Origin: a virus
Virus genome (UHGV): UHGV-1568604
Length of the DNA stretch: 12,140 nucleotides
Reading direction: 5' to 3' (one strand)
The notes beneath the pieces are model-generated. The model had not been told where the DNA came from and did no database searches. It saw only the letters and a program-made list of their open reading frames with translations. Positions 3,770 through 12,140 of the stretch are shown here, one piece after another. Numbering within the stretch: the first letter of the stretch is position 1; each line of letters begins with the position of its first letter. A program made the translations under genes and the position numbers.

Positions 3770-4951
3770 TTACTCAGAGTCACCGGCATCAATCGTGTCG
3801 CCGCTTATAAAGTTAAGCCCGCCTTTTTTGGCCATTGTCAGCGTTACACGAGTGAAGTAATCAGCGCCGTTGCGTGGGTGCATATCGTTGATAGCCGAAC
3901 CCCACAGCGTGGTACGGTTGACCAGCGCCGGAGTGGTCGGATGCTGGAACGGGATGGCCGGGACAGCATCACCAGTCACGAAGCCTGCTTTACCCGGATT
4001 TTCATCACGGACGTAGCACAGCACATCCATCGAGCTGAACTGAATGTTCTCTGTCGTTAAGTTCTTACAAATACCAGCAGGTACTTCGTACACTTTCACG
4101 TTACCGAACAGGGTACCGATGTAGTGAACATACGGAGTCTGGATATAGTCTTCGGCTGACTGGAAGAAATCCTTCGGCAACTGTTTGAAGAAAGATGCTG
4201 CATCAGCACCAGCAAACATCCCCATCGCACCAGAAGATTTAACGCGCTCAATAATGTCGCGATATACAGTCTGGAATTTGCCACGAATGATGGTTGCCCA
4301 TACATCAAAGGACTGGTTAACCGGCAGAGCGATGTCAAAGGTGTCGGTCGCAAGAGTACGCCAGATCATGATGCGAAGACGCAGCATATCCTGTTCATGA
4401 GACAGGTATTCCTTCAGGGTGCGGAACTGTAGGGAACCCAGGTCCAGACCAAATTCACGCTGTGCTTCATACGCCGCCTGTACCGTGTGCTCAGCCGCGA
4501 TAACGAACTGACTTGGGAACAGGGTGTATTTCTTCATTTCGTGGTTGATCAGCGGGATCAGCTCAGGAGCGGCTTCAATATTGATTTCCGTCTCAATTGC
4601 GATCTCAGTGCCTTTATCCGGCGCTTTGGAGAACGACAGGGCAATCTGACCAATGTTGTAGTTCAGAGAGCAGGTAACAGTGATTTGCTCACCAGCAGCA
4701 TTAGTAAACGAGTGAAGTAGGCTGCCGGAACCGTTATCAACAACAGACTTAATACGGTTAACGTAGATGTTAGTGCGACCTTTTCGGATTGGTACATTCT
4801 GGCCTTCGAAGTCTTCCATCTTGAAGGTTGCGGTTTTGCTGGTGCCATCGGAGCTTGCCAGCAGCATAAGAACCAAAAGATGAACCTGCCACGTTAAAGA
4901 CTTCATAGATGTCGGACTGGTCACGCGTAACCGGAATGAAGGTACACGCAT
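3770..4951 (-). CDS. Major capsid protein precursor, C-terminal part (frameshifted relative to the N-terminal part)
   Basis: Long ORF whose protein-like translation begins around ASSDGTSKTATFKMEDFEG (about 4858 downward). The first ~30 codons after the nominal ATG 4951 are out-of-frame read-through with no SD. Together with 4770..5411 it spans 1642 nt (3n+1). Confidence 0.7.
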   Translation of the reverse strand: MRVPSFRLRVTSPTSMKSLTWQVHLLVLMLLASSDGTSKTATFKMEDFEGQNVPIRKGRTNIYVNRIKSVVDNGSGSLLHSFTNAAGEQITVTCSLNYNIGQIALSFSKAPDKGTEIAIETEINIEAAPELIPLINHEMKKYTLFPSQFVIAAEHTVQAAYEAQREFGLDLGSLQFRTLKEYLSHEQDMLRLRIMIWRTLATDTFDIALPVNQSFDVWATIIRGKFQTVYRDIIERVKSSGAMGMFAGADAASFFKQLPKDFFQSAEDYIQTPYVHYIGTLFGNVKVYEVPAGICKNLTTENIQFSSMDVLCYVRDENPGKAGFVTGDAVPAIPFQHPTTPALVNRTTLWGSAINDMHPRNGADYFTRVTLTMAKKGGLNFISGDTIDAGDSE

Positions 4952-5411
4952 CAGCGGTAGCTGCCCCCAACTGAACAGGCAGGATCATCGCGAGGAATAA
5001 AGGCAGACGCATAACACCGTCAGAAACGCTCATCATCTCTGCTGCGACGGATTCCAGCATCGCTTTATTAGTGGCATCCATGCTATTGCGGGTGGACTCA
5101 ATCAGGCAGTTTTCCAGCGTCTGGTGGCAGGAGGCCAGAATTTCCGGACGCGGCATAGATTTATGTGCTGCGGCGTAGTCAGCCAGTGCACTTGCCCACG
5201 CTGTAGCGATTTGAGCGGTGGCATTATCAGAGATACCCGCAAAAACCGGGTCTTTACGTGCAGCTTCAAGGATAGATGCGGCACGCGCGGCATCATCTTT
5301 AATGAATTGGTTATCAGTACCGAACTGCGCAGTGCTTGCCCAGCCAAGCACAGCTTTAGAGCGTTTTGCGATATCTGCAATACGATTCTGGTATTCGCGT
5401 AAGTTACTCAA
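4770..5411 (-). CDS. Major capsid protein precursor, N-terminal part with delta/scaffold-like domain (frameshifted)
   Basis: AGGAAG sits 6 nt upstream of TTG 5411, giving MSNLREYQNRIADIAK...; the ORF track's TTG 5432 start would translate through that SD. Ala-rich helical N-terminus resembles a capsid delta domain. The frame stays protein-like to about ..GSSFGSYAAG (near 4857), then becomes R-rich junk until the stop at 4770. Confidence 0.65.
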   Translation of the reverse strand: MSNLREYQNRIADIAKRSKAVLGWASTAQFGTDNQFIKDDAARAASILEAARKDPVFAGISDNATAQIATAWASALADYAAAHKSMPRPEILASCHQTLENCLIESTRNSMDATNKAMLESVAAEMMSVSDGVMRLPLFLAMILPVQLGAATADACTFIPVTRDQSDIYEVFNVAGSSFGSYAAGKLRWHQQNRNLQDGRLRRPECTNPKRSH

Positions 5412-5426
5412 TTTACTCTTCCTTAA

Positions 5427-5491
5427 ACACAAGGCACTTGTGTGAATCCCTTTTCGGAAGAGATTTTATTGAAAGTCACTTGTTGACTTTC
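5427..5491 (-). promoter_or_regulatory. Candidate late promoter/operator upstream of the capsid gene
   Basis: Perfect inverted repeat GAAAGTCA-cttgt-TGACTTTC at 5471-5491 and a second one ACACAAG-gca-CTTGTGT at 5427-5443, the latter 4 nt upstream of the capsid SD. An A/T homopolymer tract lies at 5505-5519. Confidence 0.3.
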
Positions 5492-5544
5492 TCGTGACAA
5501 GCAATTTTTTTATTTTTTTCGGGAGTAGGGGAGGAAGGTAAAAT

Positions 5545-5635
5545 CCAAGGTGAAATCGTGGCGATTTCACCTTGAAATTTTAGAGGGATTTACTTTAAAA
5601 ACAGTAGGTTAATAGTGAAATTTGAATGGCGAAAG
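5545..5635. other. parS: parS partition site (P1-type box A heptamers and box B hexamers flanking an AT-rich IHF-like core)
   Basis: Box A-like heptamers (ATTTCAC/ATTTCAA) at 5550-5556, 5564-5570, 5572-5578 and 5615-5621. Box B (TCGCCA, seen as TGGCGA) at 5559-5564 and 5627-5632. AT-rich core about 5580-5612. Immediately downstream of parB. Motif identity is from recall of the P1 system. Confidence 0.75.
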
Positions 5636-5636
5636 T

Positions 5637-6638
5637 TTAAGGCTTCGGCTTTTTATCGAGGCTCTTTCTAAGGATATGCCCAATCATCCTGTCGAGTTCT
5701 TCCTGTAGCTCTTTTGAAAGTCGATTAAACTCATAAGAAAATGCACGGCCTTTCACGCGCTTCCTTGCAAAGCGATCCTTGTCCTCAAATTTCCATAATT
5801 CAGTAACTACGGACTTATCTTTAGAACCTTTATCCGTGAGTAGTGAGGCTTCCTTTGTTATCAAGCGCAGGATTTTATTTTTAACTTCATCTTCGGCCAT
5901 TTCTTCAATGGATAAGATGTCGTTTATTTCCGGGGATATGTTTTGAATAAGCTGATCAAACTCTAAATTCTTGTTCCCCATTTCGTCGCCAACAGCACAA
6001 AGCGTTTTGTAGTCCGAAAAGGTTAATTCCGACTGCACAGGGAAAAGGGCGACTAATTCTTCCGGAGCACTCGCTGCCTGGAGAGCACGCGTGACCTTCG
6101 CCTGAGACAGCCCTTCTTTGGCTGCAATATCCTTCTGACTCATCCCATCATTTTTCATTCGCATCAAACGCAGACCTATTTCTCGAATGCTGTGCTGCAA
6201 TGCTGTCTGAACGTCTTTCGCTAAATTTTGCGCTTCCTGAACGCTGATCTCCTGGTCCGTGACTAAAACCCGCAACCCTACGTTCTCTAAGATGGCAGAA
6301 GCTCGACGCCGGGAACCATCCAAAATTTCAATTTTCCCTGTAGCCCGTCTAACACCTATTGCAGGGTAAAATTGCTGATGCTTAATAGTGCTTCGGATAC
6401 TTTTTAATGATTTTGGCGTAAGAGATGTCTGGTCACGCCCGTTGTTATGCTGATCAACAAAGGTATCGCTTTCTACCTGGTTCGGAGGTATTACCTCTTC
6501 AATAAATGTGGCCTGGCGACCAGTTGATAACTTGAATACCTGCTCGACTCGATCGCCAGAGGCTGAAGAACTATCAAATCCGCTTAATATTGAAGGATTA
6601 AGGGTTCGCCCAATTGTTGGTCTGTTTTTCTTTGACAT
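5637..6638 (-). CDS. parB: Partition protein ParB (centromere-binding, 333 aa)
   Basis: 333-aa ORF directly downstream of parA with parS after its stop. Sequence is recognised as P1-type ParB from memory and includes a helix-turn-helix-like segment (MSQKDIAAKEGLSQAKVTRAL). Confidence 0.93.
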   Translation of the reverse strand: MSKKNRPTIGRTLNPSILSGFDSSSASGDRVEQVFKLSTGRQATFIEEVIPPNQVESDTFVDQHNNGRDQTSLTPKSLKSIRSTIKHQQFYPAIGVRRATGKIEILDGSRRRASAILENVGLRVLVTDQEISVQEAQNLAKDVQTALQHSIREIGLRLMRMKNDGMSQKDIAAKEGLSQAKVTRALQAASAPEELVALFPVQSELTFSDYKTLCAVGDEMGNKNLEFDQLIQNISPEINDILSIEEMAEDEVKNKILRLITKEASLLTDKGSKDKSVVTELWKFEDKDRFARKRVKGRAFSYEFNRLSKELQEELDRMIGHILRKSLDKKPKP

Positions 6639-6654
6639 GGGGGTTTCTTACTCC

Positions 6655-7851
6655 TCAGTTAGATCTGATAAATTCAATACGGTCAAAAACTGCTTTAGCA
6701 AAATCTTCCGCAGCAATTCGCGCGTTCTTCAATGCATCAGCACTACCAACATACGTTGCCGGGTTAGCTGAAATAACAGTGTCAAAAGACTCGCCGCAGC
6801 GTTCAAAACCGTCAAGGCGAGGGAGGACAACATCAAGCATATCCCCACCGAACACTTCTTTAGCCAGGCTATGGCAATACTTATGGTCTGCCTTGTTACT
6901 CAACTTGGACATAAAACCAATGTTAGTTGCAAGCTGACACTCGCAGCCTTCATCCGAAATGAGTTTCACCAACTCAGGAAGGCGGGCAACGTATTTAAGC
7001 GATGAGTGGAAATCAACCGTTGCAGGCGGCAGAGGTGTAAACAGTATATTGGCCGAGGCCAAAGCATTTTTCAGGAAGGCGTCAAGGTGAGGACCACTAT
7101 CAACGAGGATAAAGTCATAATCGCTCTTCAGCTTATCAATCACATTTTCTTTCAGGACTGCATGGATGTTCTGACCCGGTAGATGCTCATTGCACAGCTC
7201 TCTCCAATCGGATGCAATAAAGGCATCGTCAATCGACGCAGGCATAACGTCAACCCCAGGTACAACAGAAGGAACAATAAACTCCTCTAACAGCTCTTCA
7301 CGGCTTACATTCTGCAACATAGCCTGTGCAGATGTTGCGTTTACGATACCAATAGAGTGTTTATGGCTTAAAAACATCGTTGCTGAAGATTGCGGATCAA
7401 GGTCAATAACCAGAATCCTTAAATCTTCCATCAGAAGATGAGGATGAGCACGCATTGCATGCGCCAGAGAAACCGTCGATACAGTTTTTGACACACCGCC
7501 TTTAAGATTGGAGATGAAAATCACATACGCTTCGCTGTAGCGATCCCGGTATTTTGGCACTCCGCGATGTTCATATATGTCAATGATGTTCTGAATTGAC
7601 ATCGCATATTTCATTGAAGAGCCAGCAGGGCGTTTATCGAAAACATAACCCTTTTCTTCCATTTCACTTACGGCATAGTCAACGTTCGCACGAGTCAGTA
7701 GAGGCAATTTTGCCAGTGCCGCTTTCGCATAGACCTGGTAAAACTCGTTCGCGTGTAGCTCATCCTTTTGCAACTGTACTTGTTCAGTCAGAACATTGAG
7801 CATTCTATTTGCTCTTTGAGCAACCTTGTGAAGCTGGCTGGAATCACTCAT
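6655..7851 (-). CDS. parA: Partition ATPase ParA (type Ia, 398 aa)
   Basis: Deviant Walker A motif (NLKGGVSKT), Walker-type ATPase architecture and a long N-terminal regulatory extension typical of type Ia ParA. Recognised as P1-type ParA from memory. AAGGA precedes ATG 7851. Confidence 0.95.
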   Translation of the reverse strand: MSDSSQLHKVAQRANRMLNVLTEQVQLQKDELHANEFYQVYAKAALAKLPLLTRANVDYAVSEMEEKGYVFDKRPAGSSMKYAMSIQNIIDIYEHRGVPKYRDRYSEAYVIFISNLKGGVSKTVSTVSLAHAMRAHPHLLMEDLRILVIDLDPQSSATMFLSHKHSIGIVNATSAQAMLQNVSREELLEEFIVPSVVPGVDVMPASIDDAFIASDWRELCNEHLPGQNIHAVLKENVIDKLKSDYDFILVDSGPHLDAFLKNALASANILFTPLPPATVDFHSSLKYVARLPELVKLISDEGCECQLATNIGFMSKLSNKADHKYCHSLAKEVFGGDMLDVVLPRLDGFERCGESFDTVISANPATYVGSADALKNARIAAEDFAKAVFDRIEFIRSN

Positions 7852-7985
7852 CGAAAGCCATCCTTTATGCTGTATTTTTGAATTTAATTAAAAATGCTGC
7901 ATAAAATAATAATGTATGCGTAGATGCTTGTACATAGCATTCTCTGCATGTTTGGTTCATTTTGCACGATTGAGAGTTACAAGGA
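7852..7985 (-). promoter_or_regulatory. par operon promoter/operator region
   Basis: AT-rich ~130-bp leader upstream of parA with near-palindromic elements (ATGCTTGTACATAGCAT, TTTAATTAAA). Type Ia ParA proteins autoregulate at such operators (established knowledge); exact promoter not mapped. Confidence 0.4.
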
Positions 7986-7991
7986 GGGCAC

Positions 7992-8012
7992 AAAAAAGCC
8001 CCGTTCAGGGGC
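7992..8012 (-). terminator. Rho-independent terminator after the 269-aa gene
   Basis: Minus-strand read GCCCC-UGAAC-GGGGC followed by UUUUUUG, beginning 8 nt after the stop codon at 8020-8022. It insulates the par promoter from upstream transcription. Confidence 0.7.
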
Positions 8013-8019
8013 ATCAGTG

Positions 8020-8829
8020 TTATTTGCTAAGAGCAGCGAATAATCGTTCGAAATCGATAGTATCTATAGCACGCGTAAGCGCCGGAAGTTCAGCCTCAAA
8101 GTACCCGTGTCGATCGTAAAAGAAGGGACCGAAGAGCGAGGCATGTTGGATTCTACTTCGCCCCAGCCCGGACACACAGTTAAGCCCATTACCGGCTAAA
8201 AGGCTAAAAAACTTCTCTGGATTATCGTGGTAAAGCTGGGAATCAATGGTGGCGGTTAACTCTTCCATAGGGAAGCACACCCGCCCTGTATCCCAGGGAT
8301 ATTTAGTCCGAAGCATAAACATTGCTTTCAGCAATTCACATTGAGCGCGGATCGCGTCCGGTTCATAGCCAGATATGGAGACATAAGCCACGTCCCTCAT
8401 TCCTGCGTCATCTTTGAAAGTCACGATAGAAGTAACATCCAGCTCTTTTTCGAAAGAGCAAGCAGCATCTACTGGACGCTGAAGTAAATCATTCGACTTA
8501 ATGCGCTCGAGAATCCCTCCCCACATATCATTTAGATATTCGATATGAGCCAAAACCTTATCAAGACACTCTCGTGTAAACCATTCAGTATGCCCGCCAC
8601 CGACGCTTTTCTCCCACGGCGCATTCCAGGGGAAAAAGGTTGCGTGTAAAGCCCGCTCAAGATTAACCATTGCCAAACGCGTACCACGATAGACCCGTGA
8701 AAGCGCAAAATCGGGACTCACTTGTAGCCCTTTAAACCGTGCCAATGGACCACATGAAATGCCGATTTTAAAAGTATCTCCGTTCTCTGGCACCAGAACG
8801 TAGAGGTAGTGTTGTTTCTCTTCTTGCAT
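8020..8829 (-). CDS. T5orf172/GIY-YIG-like nuclease-domain protein with an uncharacterised C-terminal domain (269 aa)
   Basis: N-terminal ~110 aa carry the T5orf172/GIY-YIG-like pattern (YLYVLV..., FKIGIS, LERALHATF, TEWF). C-terminal ~150 aa have no feature I recognise. Single gene with its own terminator, between the iteron field and the par promoter. Confidence 0.75.
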   Translation of the reverse strand: MQEEKQHYLYVLVPENGDTFKIGISCGPLARFKGLQVSPDFALSRVYRGTRLAMVNLERALHATFFPWNAPWEKSVGGGHTEWFTRECLDKVLAHIEYLNDMWGGILERIKSNDLLQRPVDAACSFEKELDVTSIVTFKDDAGMRDVAYVSISGYEPDAIRAQCELLKAMFMLRTKYPWDTGRVCFPMEELTATIDSQLYHDNPEKFFSLLAGNGLNCVSGLGRSRIQHASLFGPFFYDRHGYFEAELPALTRAIDTIDFERLFAALSK

Positions 8830-8863
8830 ATCAATACCACTGCTTGATGAGAACCGCGCAAAT

Positions 8864-9119
8864 GTTGACTATGCGCGAAGGTTAATGTGAATAGTTGACT
8901 ATGCGCGATGTGACTACAGTCAAAAGTTGACTGTAGTCGATTTAACTCCACCAAAGATCGACTATGTAAGATATTGTCGGGAGAAACGTTGACTATACGC
9001 GATGAAATGCCCCTAAAAGCCATCTCAATAGCGACTTGCAGAATATTGACGCCAGCAAAAATCCACCAGCGTCAACGAATGTCGCCTATAGTCAACTTCT
9101 CGCTATCGCATATAGTCAA
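8864..9119. repeat. Iteron field downstream of repA (incA-like copy-control locus)
   Basis: Direct copies of GTTGACTAT(G/A)CGCGA at 8864-8878, 8894-8908 and 8988-9002. Variants at 8926-8940 and 8957-8971. Inverted copies at 8910-8923, 9083-9097 and 9106-9119. Same core as the origin iterons. Confidence 0.8.
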
Positions 9120-9121
9120 TA

Positions 9122-10006
9122 TTATGGATTGCGCTTATGGATCTGGAAGCCGATTTTCCTGCCGTTTTTTATCTCTGAAAATTTAAGATATTCAATAGCT
9201 TCCAAATCTTTCATGGCTTTTCTGATAACGCTATTTTGCACGCTAACGGATGATTTGAGATTAAGCCTCGCTCTAAGGCGCTCAATGCTGACAGGTGCCG
9301 GGTTGGCGGGTAGAGCCTCAAAGAATGTATACAGTACCTTGGCCGTCTCTTTGCGCCCTAGTTTATCCAGCATCTTCAGCTTCAGGATTCGCTTATAGTC
9401 AACATAGTAAAGTTCAGATAGCTGTTTCTGCGGCTGGATCTCGATAACATCAAGCTCGGTATTCAGGCTGCTATATGCCAACAAGTTGACGTTAATGTTA
9501 TTGAGATGACCTTTTGCCGCCGGGAAGCGGAATTTGACAACTGTCTGCTGAATGCGTGTCAGAGAGTCATCAATACTTTTACGGAACGCCTTTGAAAGGC
9601 GCTTACGTGGATAGCCGCATCGATCGGCAAACTCGGAGAATGGCAGGGTGATTATGCCGTCATCATCAGGTGCGTAGTCAAACAACGCGGAGGTTATGCC
9701 CACCCACACCTTAAAATCAGTATCCATATCCAGGCGTGGACCATGAATTTCAATTCCCTCATAGCCTTCCTGCTCAACAATTTTGAGGCTTGATAGTTCT
9801 TCAGTTGCGTTCGTTGTGTTTGTTGTAACTGACGATCCGCGACGTAGCGCCACATTGGTAGATTTTAAGGTTGGCACAAACACACCTAAGCGCAACAAAG
9901 CGATGGGTTGTATAGTGCTGTTGTTATTGGGCTTCAGGCTGTGGATTTCTCCTGTATTTCCTGCAACTTCTTCAACGCTAAGGAAGCCTTTACTTTCTTC
10001 CGGCAT
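9122..10006 (-). CDS. repA: Iteron-binding replication initiator RepA (Rep_3 family, 294 aa from ATG 10006)
   Basis: Flanked by iteron arrays on both sides. Conserved initiator segments are present (QPIALLRLGVFVP, GPRLDMDTDFKVW). GGAGA lies 7 nt upstream of ATG 10006; the ORF track's TTG 10042 has no SD. Confidence 0.88.
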   Translation of the reverse strand: MPEESKGFLSVEEVAGNTGEIHSLKPNNNSTIQPIALLRLGVFVPTLKSTNVALRRGSSVTTNTTNATEELSSLKIVEQEGYEGIEIHGPRLDMDTDFKVWVGITSALFDYAPDDDGIITLPFSEFADRCGYPRKRLSKAFRKSIDDSLTRIQQTVVKFRFPAAKGHLNNINVNLLAYSSLNTELDVIEIQPQKQLSELYYVDYKRILKLKMLDKLGRKETAKVLYTFFEALPANPAPVSIERLRARLNLKSSVSVQNSVIRKAMKDLEAIEYLKFSEIKNGRKIGFQIHKRNP

Positions 10007-10087
10007 CACGGTTTCTCCATGTGTGGCGCGGCCTGACGTCAATTTGGATGGCTGTTATCAACAGCTGTGAATATTCAGACTCTAAAA

Positions 10088-10187
10088 TCGCTTACAGTCA
10101 ATGTTTCTGTCGCGTATAGTCAACAATAAATCGCGTGCAGTCAACAATAAATCGTGCACAGTCAACATAAAATCGCGTATAGTCAAT
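10088..10187. repeat. Origin iterons: five direct repeats with ~21.5-bp phasing
   Basis: TCGC(G/T)TRNAGTCAA(C) at 10088-10101, 10110-10124, 10131-10145, 10152-10166 and 10174-10187 (spacing 22/21/21/22 bp), immediately upstream of repA. An inverted repeat GCTGTT-atc-AACAGC at 10051-10065 contains the DnaA-box-like TTATCAACA. Confidence 0.85.
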
Positions 10188-10190
10188 GTT

Positions 10191-10298
10191 GATCCCATTT
10201 CAGGCCAGTAATGACGCGGCTTACAGCGATCCGGGATCTTCTTTGGATCTTCCTAGGTTCTCTTTAGGATCTGTTTATTGGATCTATGCTGTGGATAA
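10191..10298. other. Origin auxiliary region: GATC (Dam) cluster plus consensus DnaA box
   Basis: GATC at 10191, 10228, 10235, 10246, 10268 and 10281, four of them in GGATCT contexts. Perfect DnaA box TTATCCACA (seen as TGTGGATAA) at 10290-10298. Same architecture as P1-type oriR, by recall. Confidence 0.75.
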
Positions 10299-10299
10299 G

Positions 10300-10327
10300 T
10301 TGAATAAACCGGCCAACAAAGCCGGTT
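10300..10327 (-). terminator. Putative rho-independent terminator after the 130-aa gene
   Basis: Minus-strand read AACCGGC-UUUGUUG-GCCGGUU followed by UAUUCAACUU, about 15 nt after the stop at 10342, just before the origin. Confidence 0.55.
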
Positions 10328-10341
10328 GGAAGGAAGTCATA

Positions 10342-10734
10342 TTATTCTACGCTTTCGATAAGAAGACCATGTTCATAACATTTAAGCTCATCGCCTTCGT
10401 ACAGGAATTGGTATCCAATACCACCATTTTCATGGACATTAGGGAATAACTCATAACTCACTGAAGAGCAAATCACACCAATGCAGCGATCAACGCCTTC
10501 TCGTTCTTCAGTGCTGAAAAAATCCTCTTCGGTAAGGACATGAGTACATTGCTCATCAGCATAGGTCGGAAATACATGCTCGATGCAATCCGGGTGTTTT
10601 AAACCAAGCTGATCGGCAAGCTCGAAAGCATGACGGTATTGTTCAGATCCTGGCTTGCCAACAGTGATGTGCTCAATTTTGTAGATTGAAGTTGCTTTGT
10701 TGATAGTTTGCTTTACTGTTACTTTATCAGACAT
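10342..10734 (-). CDS. Hypothetical cytoplasmic protein (130 aa), Cys/His-containing
   Basis: AAGGGA lies 5 nt upstream of ATG 10734, which is 9 nt after the lipoprotein stop (translational coupling plausible). No transmembrane segment or signal peptide. Position matches where I recall P1 upfA (tentative). Confidence 0.65.
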   Translation of the reverse strand: MSDKVTVKQTINKATSIYKIEHITVGKPGSEQYRHAFELADQLGLKHPDCIEHVFPTYADEQCTHVLTEEDFFSTEEREGVDRCIGVICSSVSYELFPNVHENGGIGYQFLYEGDELKCYEHGLLIESVE

Positions 10735-11373: not shown

Positions 11374-11910
11374 TTACTGTGCCGCTTTGTTTAATTCATC
11401 AAGAACAGAATCAGGAACCAAAGCGGCAACTGCGCTGGCTGTGCTGACCTTATTTGCTGATGCTTCCGCAAGCGCGGTACCGATAGCATGGTTATAAGCA
11501 GTTATGGCTACGTTGGCGCTTTCATTCGCTCGTTCATACTGCTGTTGTAACGCAGTTGTGGGCGTTGTTGTCTGGTTGAAAACAACCCCAAACTGTTCAG
11601 TTGCTACTTTCAGAGATTCAATTTGCTCTTCTGTTAGTGCTGGTGGGGGAGTGGCAGTGCCGCCGCCTGAACCAGAGCCTGACGAGCTTCCTGAGCCAGT
11701 GTTAAGGGTCTGGTTAATCTCCCCCATAGCAGCGACTAAACTTGATGTATTAAGCGCGTTAACAGCGTCCTCAAGCGATTTAGTAATATTCACATCACCA
11801 ATGGCAATAGAGATCGGCAGTTCTGAAACTTCTCGCTCATTAGCACGGCAGTAAACATCCCAACCAATATCGAGTTGAAGCAGCATTGACAGATCTGCAT
11901 AACCAGCCAA
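11374..11910 (-). CDS. Hypothetical two-domain protein with a Gly/Ser-rich linker (178 aa); start uncertain
   Basis: ORF from TTG 11910 with only a weak SD. The frame stays open and protein-like for 29 more codons upstream to a TAA at 11998-12000, with no canonical start there. Central linker is GSGSSSGSGSGGGTATPPP. Confidence 0.5.
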   Translation of the reverse strand: MAGYADLSMLLQLDIGWDVYCRANEREVSELPISIAIGDVNITKSLEDAVNALNTSSLVAAMGEINQTLNTGSGSSSGSGSGGGTATPPPALTEEQIESLKVATEQFGVVFNQTTTPTTALQQQYERANESANVAITAYNHAIGTALAEASANKVSTASAVAALVPDSVLDELNKAAQ

Positions 11911-12140
11911 CAGGTCCGCGTGCTTAGTTGCCAGTTCTCCAATGTTCGTTAAGTCGGTTGTGGTTGTTCTTATCGTTGAAACGGTGATGCTGCCAACTTA
12001 CTGATTTAGTGTATGATGGTGTTTTTGAGGTTCTCCAGTGGCTTCTGTTTCTATCAGCTGTCCCTCCTGTTCAGCTACTGACGGGGTGGTGCGTAACGGC
12101 AAAAGCACTGCCGGACATCAGCGCTATCTCTGCTCTCACT

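Follow-up and report, generated by a model that had tools for sequence, protein, structure and literature searches.

A p0111-type replicon beside a P1-type partition module in a segment of a P1-like phage-plasmid

We analysed a stretch of viral DNA of 12,140 nucleotides (UHGV virus genome UHGV-1568604; hereafter, the window), which belongs to a P1-like phage-plasmid and covers its plasmid-maintenance region. With high confidence, we read positions 7954–10203 as the p0111 basic replicon, placed at the site of the IncY replicon of P1 and adjoining an unchanged P1 parABS system; this replicon most likely works like P1 oriR. The anatomy, homology relations, breakpoints and distribution set out below are direct observations. 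The IncY/p0111 mosaic is itself already known, the p0111 type having been documented in several studies (PMC9603915, PMC11165635, PMC5241659, PMC10879196). We found no open-literature description of p0111 iteron anatomy. To what is known, we add a map at single-base resolution of the origin and control iterons of p0111, the precise joints, related modules from other backbones and a count of genomes with one or both replicon types.

The order on the minus strand is bplB, pmgG, 21, 22, 23, parS, parB, parA, a 269-aa T5orf172 gene, an iteron array, repA, the origin, upfA, mlp, ppfA and upfB. Outside 7954–10203, the DNA was mostly 94–100% identical to phage P1 when compared in 250-bp windows. The flank genes (bplB, pmgG, 21, 22, 23, upfA, mlp, ppfA and upfB) likewise showed 94–100% identity to P1, and residence in a P1-like phage-plasmid backbone, a feature of the p0111 replicon type, is therefore seen here. 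Gene 23, a capsid gene, has a frameshifting 65-bp deletion, and upfB is interrupted by an inserted IS1, the end of which (11983–12140) closes the window. An Rfam scan of the window returned no RNA family, and thus no evidence for control of the antisense-RNA type.

The preliminary description of this DNA had proposed that a P1-type partition system is paired with a different iteron family, and had recognised ParA, ParB and the parS motifs as P1-type. Comparison with P1 bore out this assignment for all components of the module:

5550–5632, minus strand: parS centromere of P1 type, by alignment to annotated P1 and P7 parS
5637–6638, minus strand: parB of P1 type, with a product identical to P1 ParB at 332/333 residues
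6655–7851, minus strand: parA of P1 type, with a product identical to P1 ParA at 397/398 residues
7849–7934, minus strand: par operator and promoter Ppar, conserved with P1, from the P1 annotation; promoter-like site at 7934–7906

In DNA sequence, the partition module as a whole (5440–7953) showed 99.0% identity to P1, and P7 par DNA was only ~64% identical to that of the window. The A boxes (heptamers) and B boxes (hexamers) of parS were all identical to those of P1, and the B boxes were unlike those of P7. Four substitutions relative to P1 were found in the parS spacer, two of them inside the annotated IHF site (5606–5607). We also considered a statement, relayed in PMC5241659, that ParA/ParB of RCS47 are P7-like, and rejected it, as RCS47 ParB matched P1 ParB at 333/333 residues.

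Just upstream of Ppar, homology to P1 ended sharply at 7953 in the BLAST comparison, where 99% identity gave way over a few bases to sequence that did not align, and region 7954–10203 gave no DNA alignment to P1. The right joint was gradual: the GATC/DnaA part of the origin was ~80% identical to P1 from about 10204, and upfA was about 97–98% identical. The swapped segment measures 2.25 kb here versus 1.48 kb in P1, and the excess consists mainly of the T5orf172 gene with its terminator-like hairpin. In PLSDB, 382 records contained the whole block from parS to the origin, and a second class of records matched only up to 7953, which indicates an invariant left joint. The mosaic that had been proposed is thus upheld, with a P1 partition module lying beside a non-P1 segment whose RepA is only 42% identical to that of P1.

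This boundary could alternatively have arisen by divergence in place from the P1 replicon, without recombination, in a fast-evolving region that would be no mosaic at all. Such an origin would accord with an architecture equal to that of P1, and with the host-factor end of the origin, where ~80% identity to P1 fades gradually. We nevertheless consider it very unlikely, because alignment is lost abruptly at 7953 while both flanks are 98–99% identical to P1, and because the segment contains the extra T5orf172 gene. Furthermore, the same replicon family occurs in D6-like and divergent P1-like backbones, and 17 replication-type switches have been inferred on a core-gene tree of phage-plasmids (PMC11165635). 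Our searches also found no bridging RepA, as nothing lay between 84% and 53% identity. Replacement of the P1 replicon by a p0111 replicon accounts for the segment, the content of which is complete: positions 8865–10298 hold an iteron replicon on the minus strand with a DnaA box, five GATC sites, five direct iterons, repA and a downstream array.

8865–9002, plus strand: distal part of the copy-control (incA-like) array; iteron starts at 8865, 8895, 8927, 8958 and 8989, 30–32 bp apart
9047–9076, no strand: imperfect palindrome with TTGACGC half-sites (sequence reading)
9082–9119, minus strand: proximal part of the copy-control array; two iterons, 9082–9095 and 9106–9119
9122–10006, minus strand: repA, probable Rep_3-family initiator of the p0111 type, 294 aa; start codon per phi456 and RefSeq annotation
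9389–9402, minus strand: iteron-like site TTGACTATAAGCGA within the repA CDS, one mismatch; chance expectation in the CDS 0.001
10055–10063, plus strand: DnaA-box-like 9-mer TTATCAACA, one mismatch, between repA and the origin iterons
10088–10186, minus strand: five origin iterons (incC equivalent); starts at 10088, 10110, 10131, 10152 and 10173, spacing 22/21/21/21 bp
10228–10284, no strand: cluster of five GATC (Dam) sites, ~80% identical to the corresponding part of P1 oriR
10290–10298, minus strand: perfect DnaA box, TTATCCACA (motif match)

The core of the iteron is TTGACTRTRCGCGA. With up to three mismatches allowed, 14 sites were detected versus 3.0 expected, a number reached in 0 of 200 shuffles; 12 of these 14 had no more than two mismatches, and all 12 lay within 8865–10186. 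Exact copies were found at five positions (8865, 8895, 8989, 10110 and 10173), and the iteron at 8958 was decayed, with four mismatches. An independent repeat finder returned the same iteron families. The distal-array iterons are inverted relative to the origin iterons, and the two proximal ones (9082 and 9106), which adjoin the repA stop codon, have the orientation of the origin iterons. In total, the downstream array comprises 6–7 iterons in two orientations. The iteron-like site inside repA was also present in the D6-like plasmid NZ_CP085065.1, and the palindrome element TTGACGCTGGTGGATTT was kept in related replicons (NZ_CP085065.1 and a contig from run ERR2144811).

The annotated P1 record contains 14 RepA-binding iterons of 19 bp, with the form GATGTGTGCTGGAGGGAAA and variants. 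The P1 form given in the preliminary description was therefore right, and the window contained no iterons of the GATGTGTGCTGGAGGGAAA type at up to three mismatches. Reference P1 did not have the TTGACTAT(G/A)CGCGA core described there for the present repeats, and its RepA was far from near-identical to the one encoded here, so the claim that the iterons are unlike those of P1 holds.

It is extremely unlikely that the ligand of these repeats is not RepA but, for example, the T5orf172 protein or a host regulator, with replication specificity residing elsewhere. The distal array does lie directly upstream of the T5orf172 start at 8829, which would suit such a role. However, the number, phase and position of the repeats equal those of the RepA-binding iterons of P1 on both sides of repA, and the repeats are kept together with RepA in a D6-like plasmid without a T5orf172 gene. 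In addition, pO111_2 has a split T5orf172 gene yet carries the replicon.

RepA, the presumptive ligand of these iterons, showed full-length homology to P1 RepA (E = 9e-71), with 42% identity over 272 aligned residues, which agrees with the earlier view of a P1-related yet divergent initiator; the same identity to P1 RepA has been published for SJ46 RepA (PMC5241659). We tested the Rep_3 domains with Pfam PF01051 and PF21205 (WH1 and WH2). Rep3_C scored 27.3 bits (cut-off 21.1), and Rep3_N scored 22.0 bits, just under its cut-off of 22.4. For P1 RepA the scores were reversed, with Rep3_N over the cut-off and Rep3_C slightly under it. No match to RepA was detected in NCBIfam or PADLOC, and there was no sequence match in the PDB.

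Among its relatives, RepA was 292/294 identical to the pO111_2 protein, 100% identical to RepA of phi456 and RCS47, and 99.7% identical to RepA of SJ46 and JL22. These relatives formed a tight group with at least 84% identity; the next proteins (RepFIB-like proteins, SSU5 and P1) reached at most 53%. At 53% identity, a proteus-type relative had different repeats. When species-representative genomes were scanned for relatives of RepA, one exact copy only was returned, from an Escherichia genome, and no intermediates.

By analogy with P1, we infer that RepA binds the repeats and represses its own gene, that handcuffing takes place, and what the compatibility phenotype would be. RepA monomers would bind the five phased origin iterons and, together with host DnaA at the box at 10290–10298, would open the adjacent GATC-rich region, the use of which may be timed by Dam methylation. 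RepA bound to the origin iterons may also repress repA; this step is proposed by analogy only, because a simple scan for a consensus sigma-70 promoter of repA found none within the origin iterons. The downstream array of 6–7 iterons would titrate RepA and pair with the origin (handcuffing), and copy number would thereby stay low.

Between the downstream array and Ppar, the segment contains a gene and a hairpin:

7998–8012, minus strand: terminator-like hairpin just 3' of the T5orf172 gene, in the non-P1 segment (scan and sequence reading)
8020–8829, minus strand: T5orf172/GIY-YIG-family gene, 269 aa, without a P1 counterpart (Pfam PF10544; phrog_2876)

The T5orf172 domain scored 26.9 bits against PF10544 (cut-off 20) over residues 8–85, and the protein matched phrog_2876 over its full length. 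No match was found in NCBIfam or PADLOC, nor any sequence match in the PDB, and the protein represents nearly an orphan family. The AlphaFold2 model rested on an alignment of three sequences and was poor (mean pLDDT 51.6). The gene is annotated as adjoining repA in the p0111-type records listed. Because it lies beside the p0111 replicon in the sampled P1-like backbones, and a copy with 44% identity occupies the equivalent position in a divergent P1-like element, it might contribute to the function of the replicon module and not be a passenger, encoding a putative nuclease, of a homing type or directed at competitors, that would cut the IncY allele or a rival plasmid. We regard this as unlikely. 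If true, such a nuclease would favour the recurrent IncY-to-p0111 replacements apparent on trees of phage-plasmids, and could add to the near-absence of genomes that carry both IncY and p0111.

Judged from its sequence, the present replicon is the p0111 replicon of P1-like phage-plasmids, from which nothing of substance differs. DNA of positions 8800–10330 was 100% identical to phage phi456 and many plasmids, and 98–99.9% identical to SJ46, RCS47, JL22 and others. Replicon DNA matched 399 PLSDB plasmids. MOB-suite typing in PLSDB calls this replicon 'IncHI1B', which is a naming quirk. P1-like phage-plasmids have been found to carry either IncY (31/55) or p0111 (24/55), and JL22 has repA (p0111) and gp57 in place of repA (IncY) (PMC9603915). 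In phage-plasmids of ~90–100 kb, such as NZ_CP027133.1, this was the sole replicon type in PLSDB typing, which implies that it is functional.

The window also shows decay elsewhere, in the 65-bp frameshifting deletion of gene 23 and the IS1 insertion, and some p0111 plasmids have been typed with several replicons (PMC10879196). Both would fit an inactive remnant in an element maintained by another replicon outside the window. We find this scarcely probable, given that repA is intact and identical to that of phi456 and RCS47 (99.7% for SJ46 and JL22), that the iterons, DnaA box and GATC sites are all intact, and that JL22 is inducible and able to lysogenise (PMC9603915).

For a functional p0111 replicon, incompatibility with P1 can be considered separately for replication and partition. 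As both RepA and the iteron differ from those of P1, each initiator should ignore the iterons of the other, and replication-based (incA/incC) incompatibility with IncY/P1 is predicted to be lost. A difference in incompatibility, as had been suggested from the repeats, would hold only for these replication-based determinants. Since the parS boxes are identical to those of P1, partition-mediated (incB) incompatibility is predicted to stay; the parS (incB) determinant is shared with P1, as is, probably, the rest of the P1 backbone. In the literature, the IncY and p0111 types have been suggested to be possibly compatible (PMC11165635), and exchange of replication and partition genes has been argued to be a means of escaping incompatibility (PMC10879196).

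We then counted both types in 5426 complete E. coli genomes. IncY was present in 361 and p0111 in 415, with a union of 774; only 2 carried both, compared to 27.6 expected under independence (hypergeometric P = 7e-11, ignoring phylogeny). No single record from these genomes contained IncY and p0111 together. IncY and p0111 are thus almost never found in one cell in complete E. coli genomes despite their different initiators, indicating that a different replication specificity does not give free coexistence. Such rarity among double carriers is what the shared parS would lead one to expect, and is also compatible with some residual cross-interference. Shared immunity would equally yield this rarity, and the immunity genes lie outside the window. 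P1-like phage-plasmids spread blaCTX-M, blaSHV, mcr-1 and other resistance genes among Enterobacteriaceae, and screening for them targets the IncY or p0111 replication genes. Knowing that P1 partition is combined with a p0111 replicon helps to predict coexisting plasmids, a point already made in the literature.

Among known systems, pO111_2 of E. coli O111:H- 11128, the p0111 reference, has the same replicon. The block compared with the window (parS-parB-parA-T5orf172-repA-oriR) was 98.7% identical at the nucleotide level over 5440–10400 (4961 bp), and the T5orf172 gene is split there but intact here. From the plasmid name pO111_2, we take NC_013370 to be the RefSeq copy of AP010962. The latter (pO111_2) serves as the reference for the 'p0111' replicon (PMC11165635). 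Relative to p0111 records, the present copy differs in sitting in an element with the 65-bp deletion in gene 23 and the IS1 in upfB.

Two relatives were found in other backbones. The D6-like E. coli plasmid NZ_CP085065.1 has a RepA that is 85% identical, five origin iterons TTGACTATGTGCGA in 21-bp phase, a downstream array, a DnaA box and a GATC cluster. Its replicon lies between pmgB and tub, the site of an unrelated 251-aa Rep in D6, and three iteron remnants of the D6 type are retained beside it. In contrast to the window, it has no T5orf172 gene, and its partition system is ParM/ParR, located elsewhere on the plasmid. A divergent P1-like contig (run ERR2144811) carries a RepA with 84% identity; its origin again combines five iterons in 21-bp phase with a DnaA box and a GATC cluster. 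Its ParB is of a third kind (67% identical to P1, 42% to P7), and its T5orf172 gene (44% identical) is located as here, between the control iterons and parA. Across the two relatives, the iteron core was TTGACTATGTGCGA or TTGACTATACGCGA. That RepA relatives at 84–85% identity keep the core iteron and the five-iteron phase shows, on sequence comparison, co-conservation of initiator and repeats. As the partition partners of the two relatives differ, the replicon family is a module found with at least three partition systems.

These data are also evidence that the p0111 replicon family replaced the resident replicon in D6-like phage-plasmids, only some of which carry it. Phage D6 itself was considered as the source of the p0111 replicon and rejected, since its Rep is the unrelated 251-aa protein and its iterons differ. 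RepFIB-type replicons (IncFIB, FIB(K) and SSU5-like phage-plasmids) belong to the same Rep_3/RepFIB family, with 44–49% identity to the present RepA; this is about equal to the identity of P1 RepA, and the gap between 84% and 53% argues against a close relationship. Some database records label the p0111 RepA as 'RepFIB replication protein A'.

Compared with P1, the iteron TTGACTRTRCGCGA is unrelated to the P1 form GATGTGTGCTGGAGGGAAA, and identity between the two RepA proteins is only 42%. Downstream of repA there are 7 iterons here versus 9 in P1, a single outer DnaA box replaces two tandem boxes (a 7-bp alignment gap), and the interval from the array to Ppar contains an additional T5orf172 gene. 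Nevertheless, the overall architecture is kept, as the preliminary description had stated: the present replicon shares with the P1/P7 (IncY) type an initiator that probably belongs to the Rep_3 family and the common order of DnaA box, five GATC sites, five phased iterons, repA and downstream array. The incC iterons 10–14 of P1 (9389, 9411, 9432, 9453 and 9474 in the P1 reference) are spaced by 22/21/21/21 bp, exactly as here, and DnaA-box-like sequences occur in P1 at the place matching 10055–10063. In incA of P1, the repA-proximal copies have the origin orientation and the distal copies are inverted and about 31 bp apart (copies 1–6), an arrangement that the array downstream of repA in the window resembles.

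D6-type iterons adjoin a p0111-family replicon in the D6-like Escherichia coli plasmid NZ_CP085065.1 (L007), whose RepA is 85% identical to that of the window. These surviving iterons are a footprint showing that the replicon has been replaced in a second group of phage-plasmids as well.

Features of the window and of L007
Window 4857-4866: deletion in gene 23, by comparison with phi456 and P1; ORFs affected, 3770-4951 and 4770-5432
Window 8020-8829: T5orf172/GIY-YIG gene
Window 9047-9076: TTGACGC half-sites forming an imperfect palindrome, with the proximal control iterons on one side and the distal ones on the other
Window 9389-9402: iteron-like site with one mismatch, within the repA coding sequence (codons V-D-Y-K-R)
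Window 11983-12140: IS1 end, 98.7% identical to the IS1 copies of P1 and other phages
L007 6159-6325: three D6-type iterons, GGTGTAAGATTTGCCCTCAA, with 1-3 mismatches

Two candidate sites were identified in and around repA of the window. Only ~0.001 iteron-like sites would be expected by chance in the repA coding sequence; the one observed was also found in L007. The palindrome is a putative site that could be bound by RepA dimers. Its element TTGACGCTGGYGGATTT is present at the equivalent position in both L007 and L013, a divergent P1-like contig (run ERR2144811) with a RepA 84% identical to that of the window. The T5orf172 gene is nearly an orphan. A single cluster at 90% identity (1241 sequences) and truncated forms were found, and the sole further homologue, 44% identical, has the corresponding location in the contig from run ERR2144811. 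Because the pO111_2 copy is split into two ORFs, the gene is dispensable for maintenance.

On the partition side, parS differs from that of P1 by four substitutions (5586-5587 and 5606-5607), two of which fall within the annotated IHF site, and every ParB box is unchanged relative to P1. RCS47, which has the same p0111 replicon, has been described as carrying P7-like partition proteins, a claim relayed in PMC5241659. However, this is contradicted by the RCS47 ParB (L018 5590-6588), which is identical to P1 ParB at 333 of 333 residues.

Outside the replicon, the major capsid gene (gene 23) is frameshifted by the loss of 65 bp relative to phi456 and P1, and short CCAGCA-type repeats flank the deletion. 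Either the element is unable to make capsids, or the frameshift is an assembly error. At the right end, upfB is interrupted by the IS1 end, the last P1-homologous base being 11982. The upfB part at 11501-11982 is 86-92% identical to P1 and P7 alike, with neighbours at 98-99%, and forms a further small variable patch. At the left end, bases 1 to ~115 matched neither P1 nor P7, and Rfam gave no match; over bases 1-55 the sequence is identical to that of a fragment labelled phage ECO111 5-P. In pO111_2, a hokD locus sits immediately outside bplB.

The outer end of the origin also differs from the reference phages. A single DnaA box lies within 10290-10312, whereas both P1 and P7 carry a tandem pair, which leaves the alignment with a 7-bp gap. 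Of the P1 GATC sites the fourth has been lost, but a new GATC lies 11 bp away, and the count therefore remains five.
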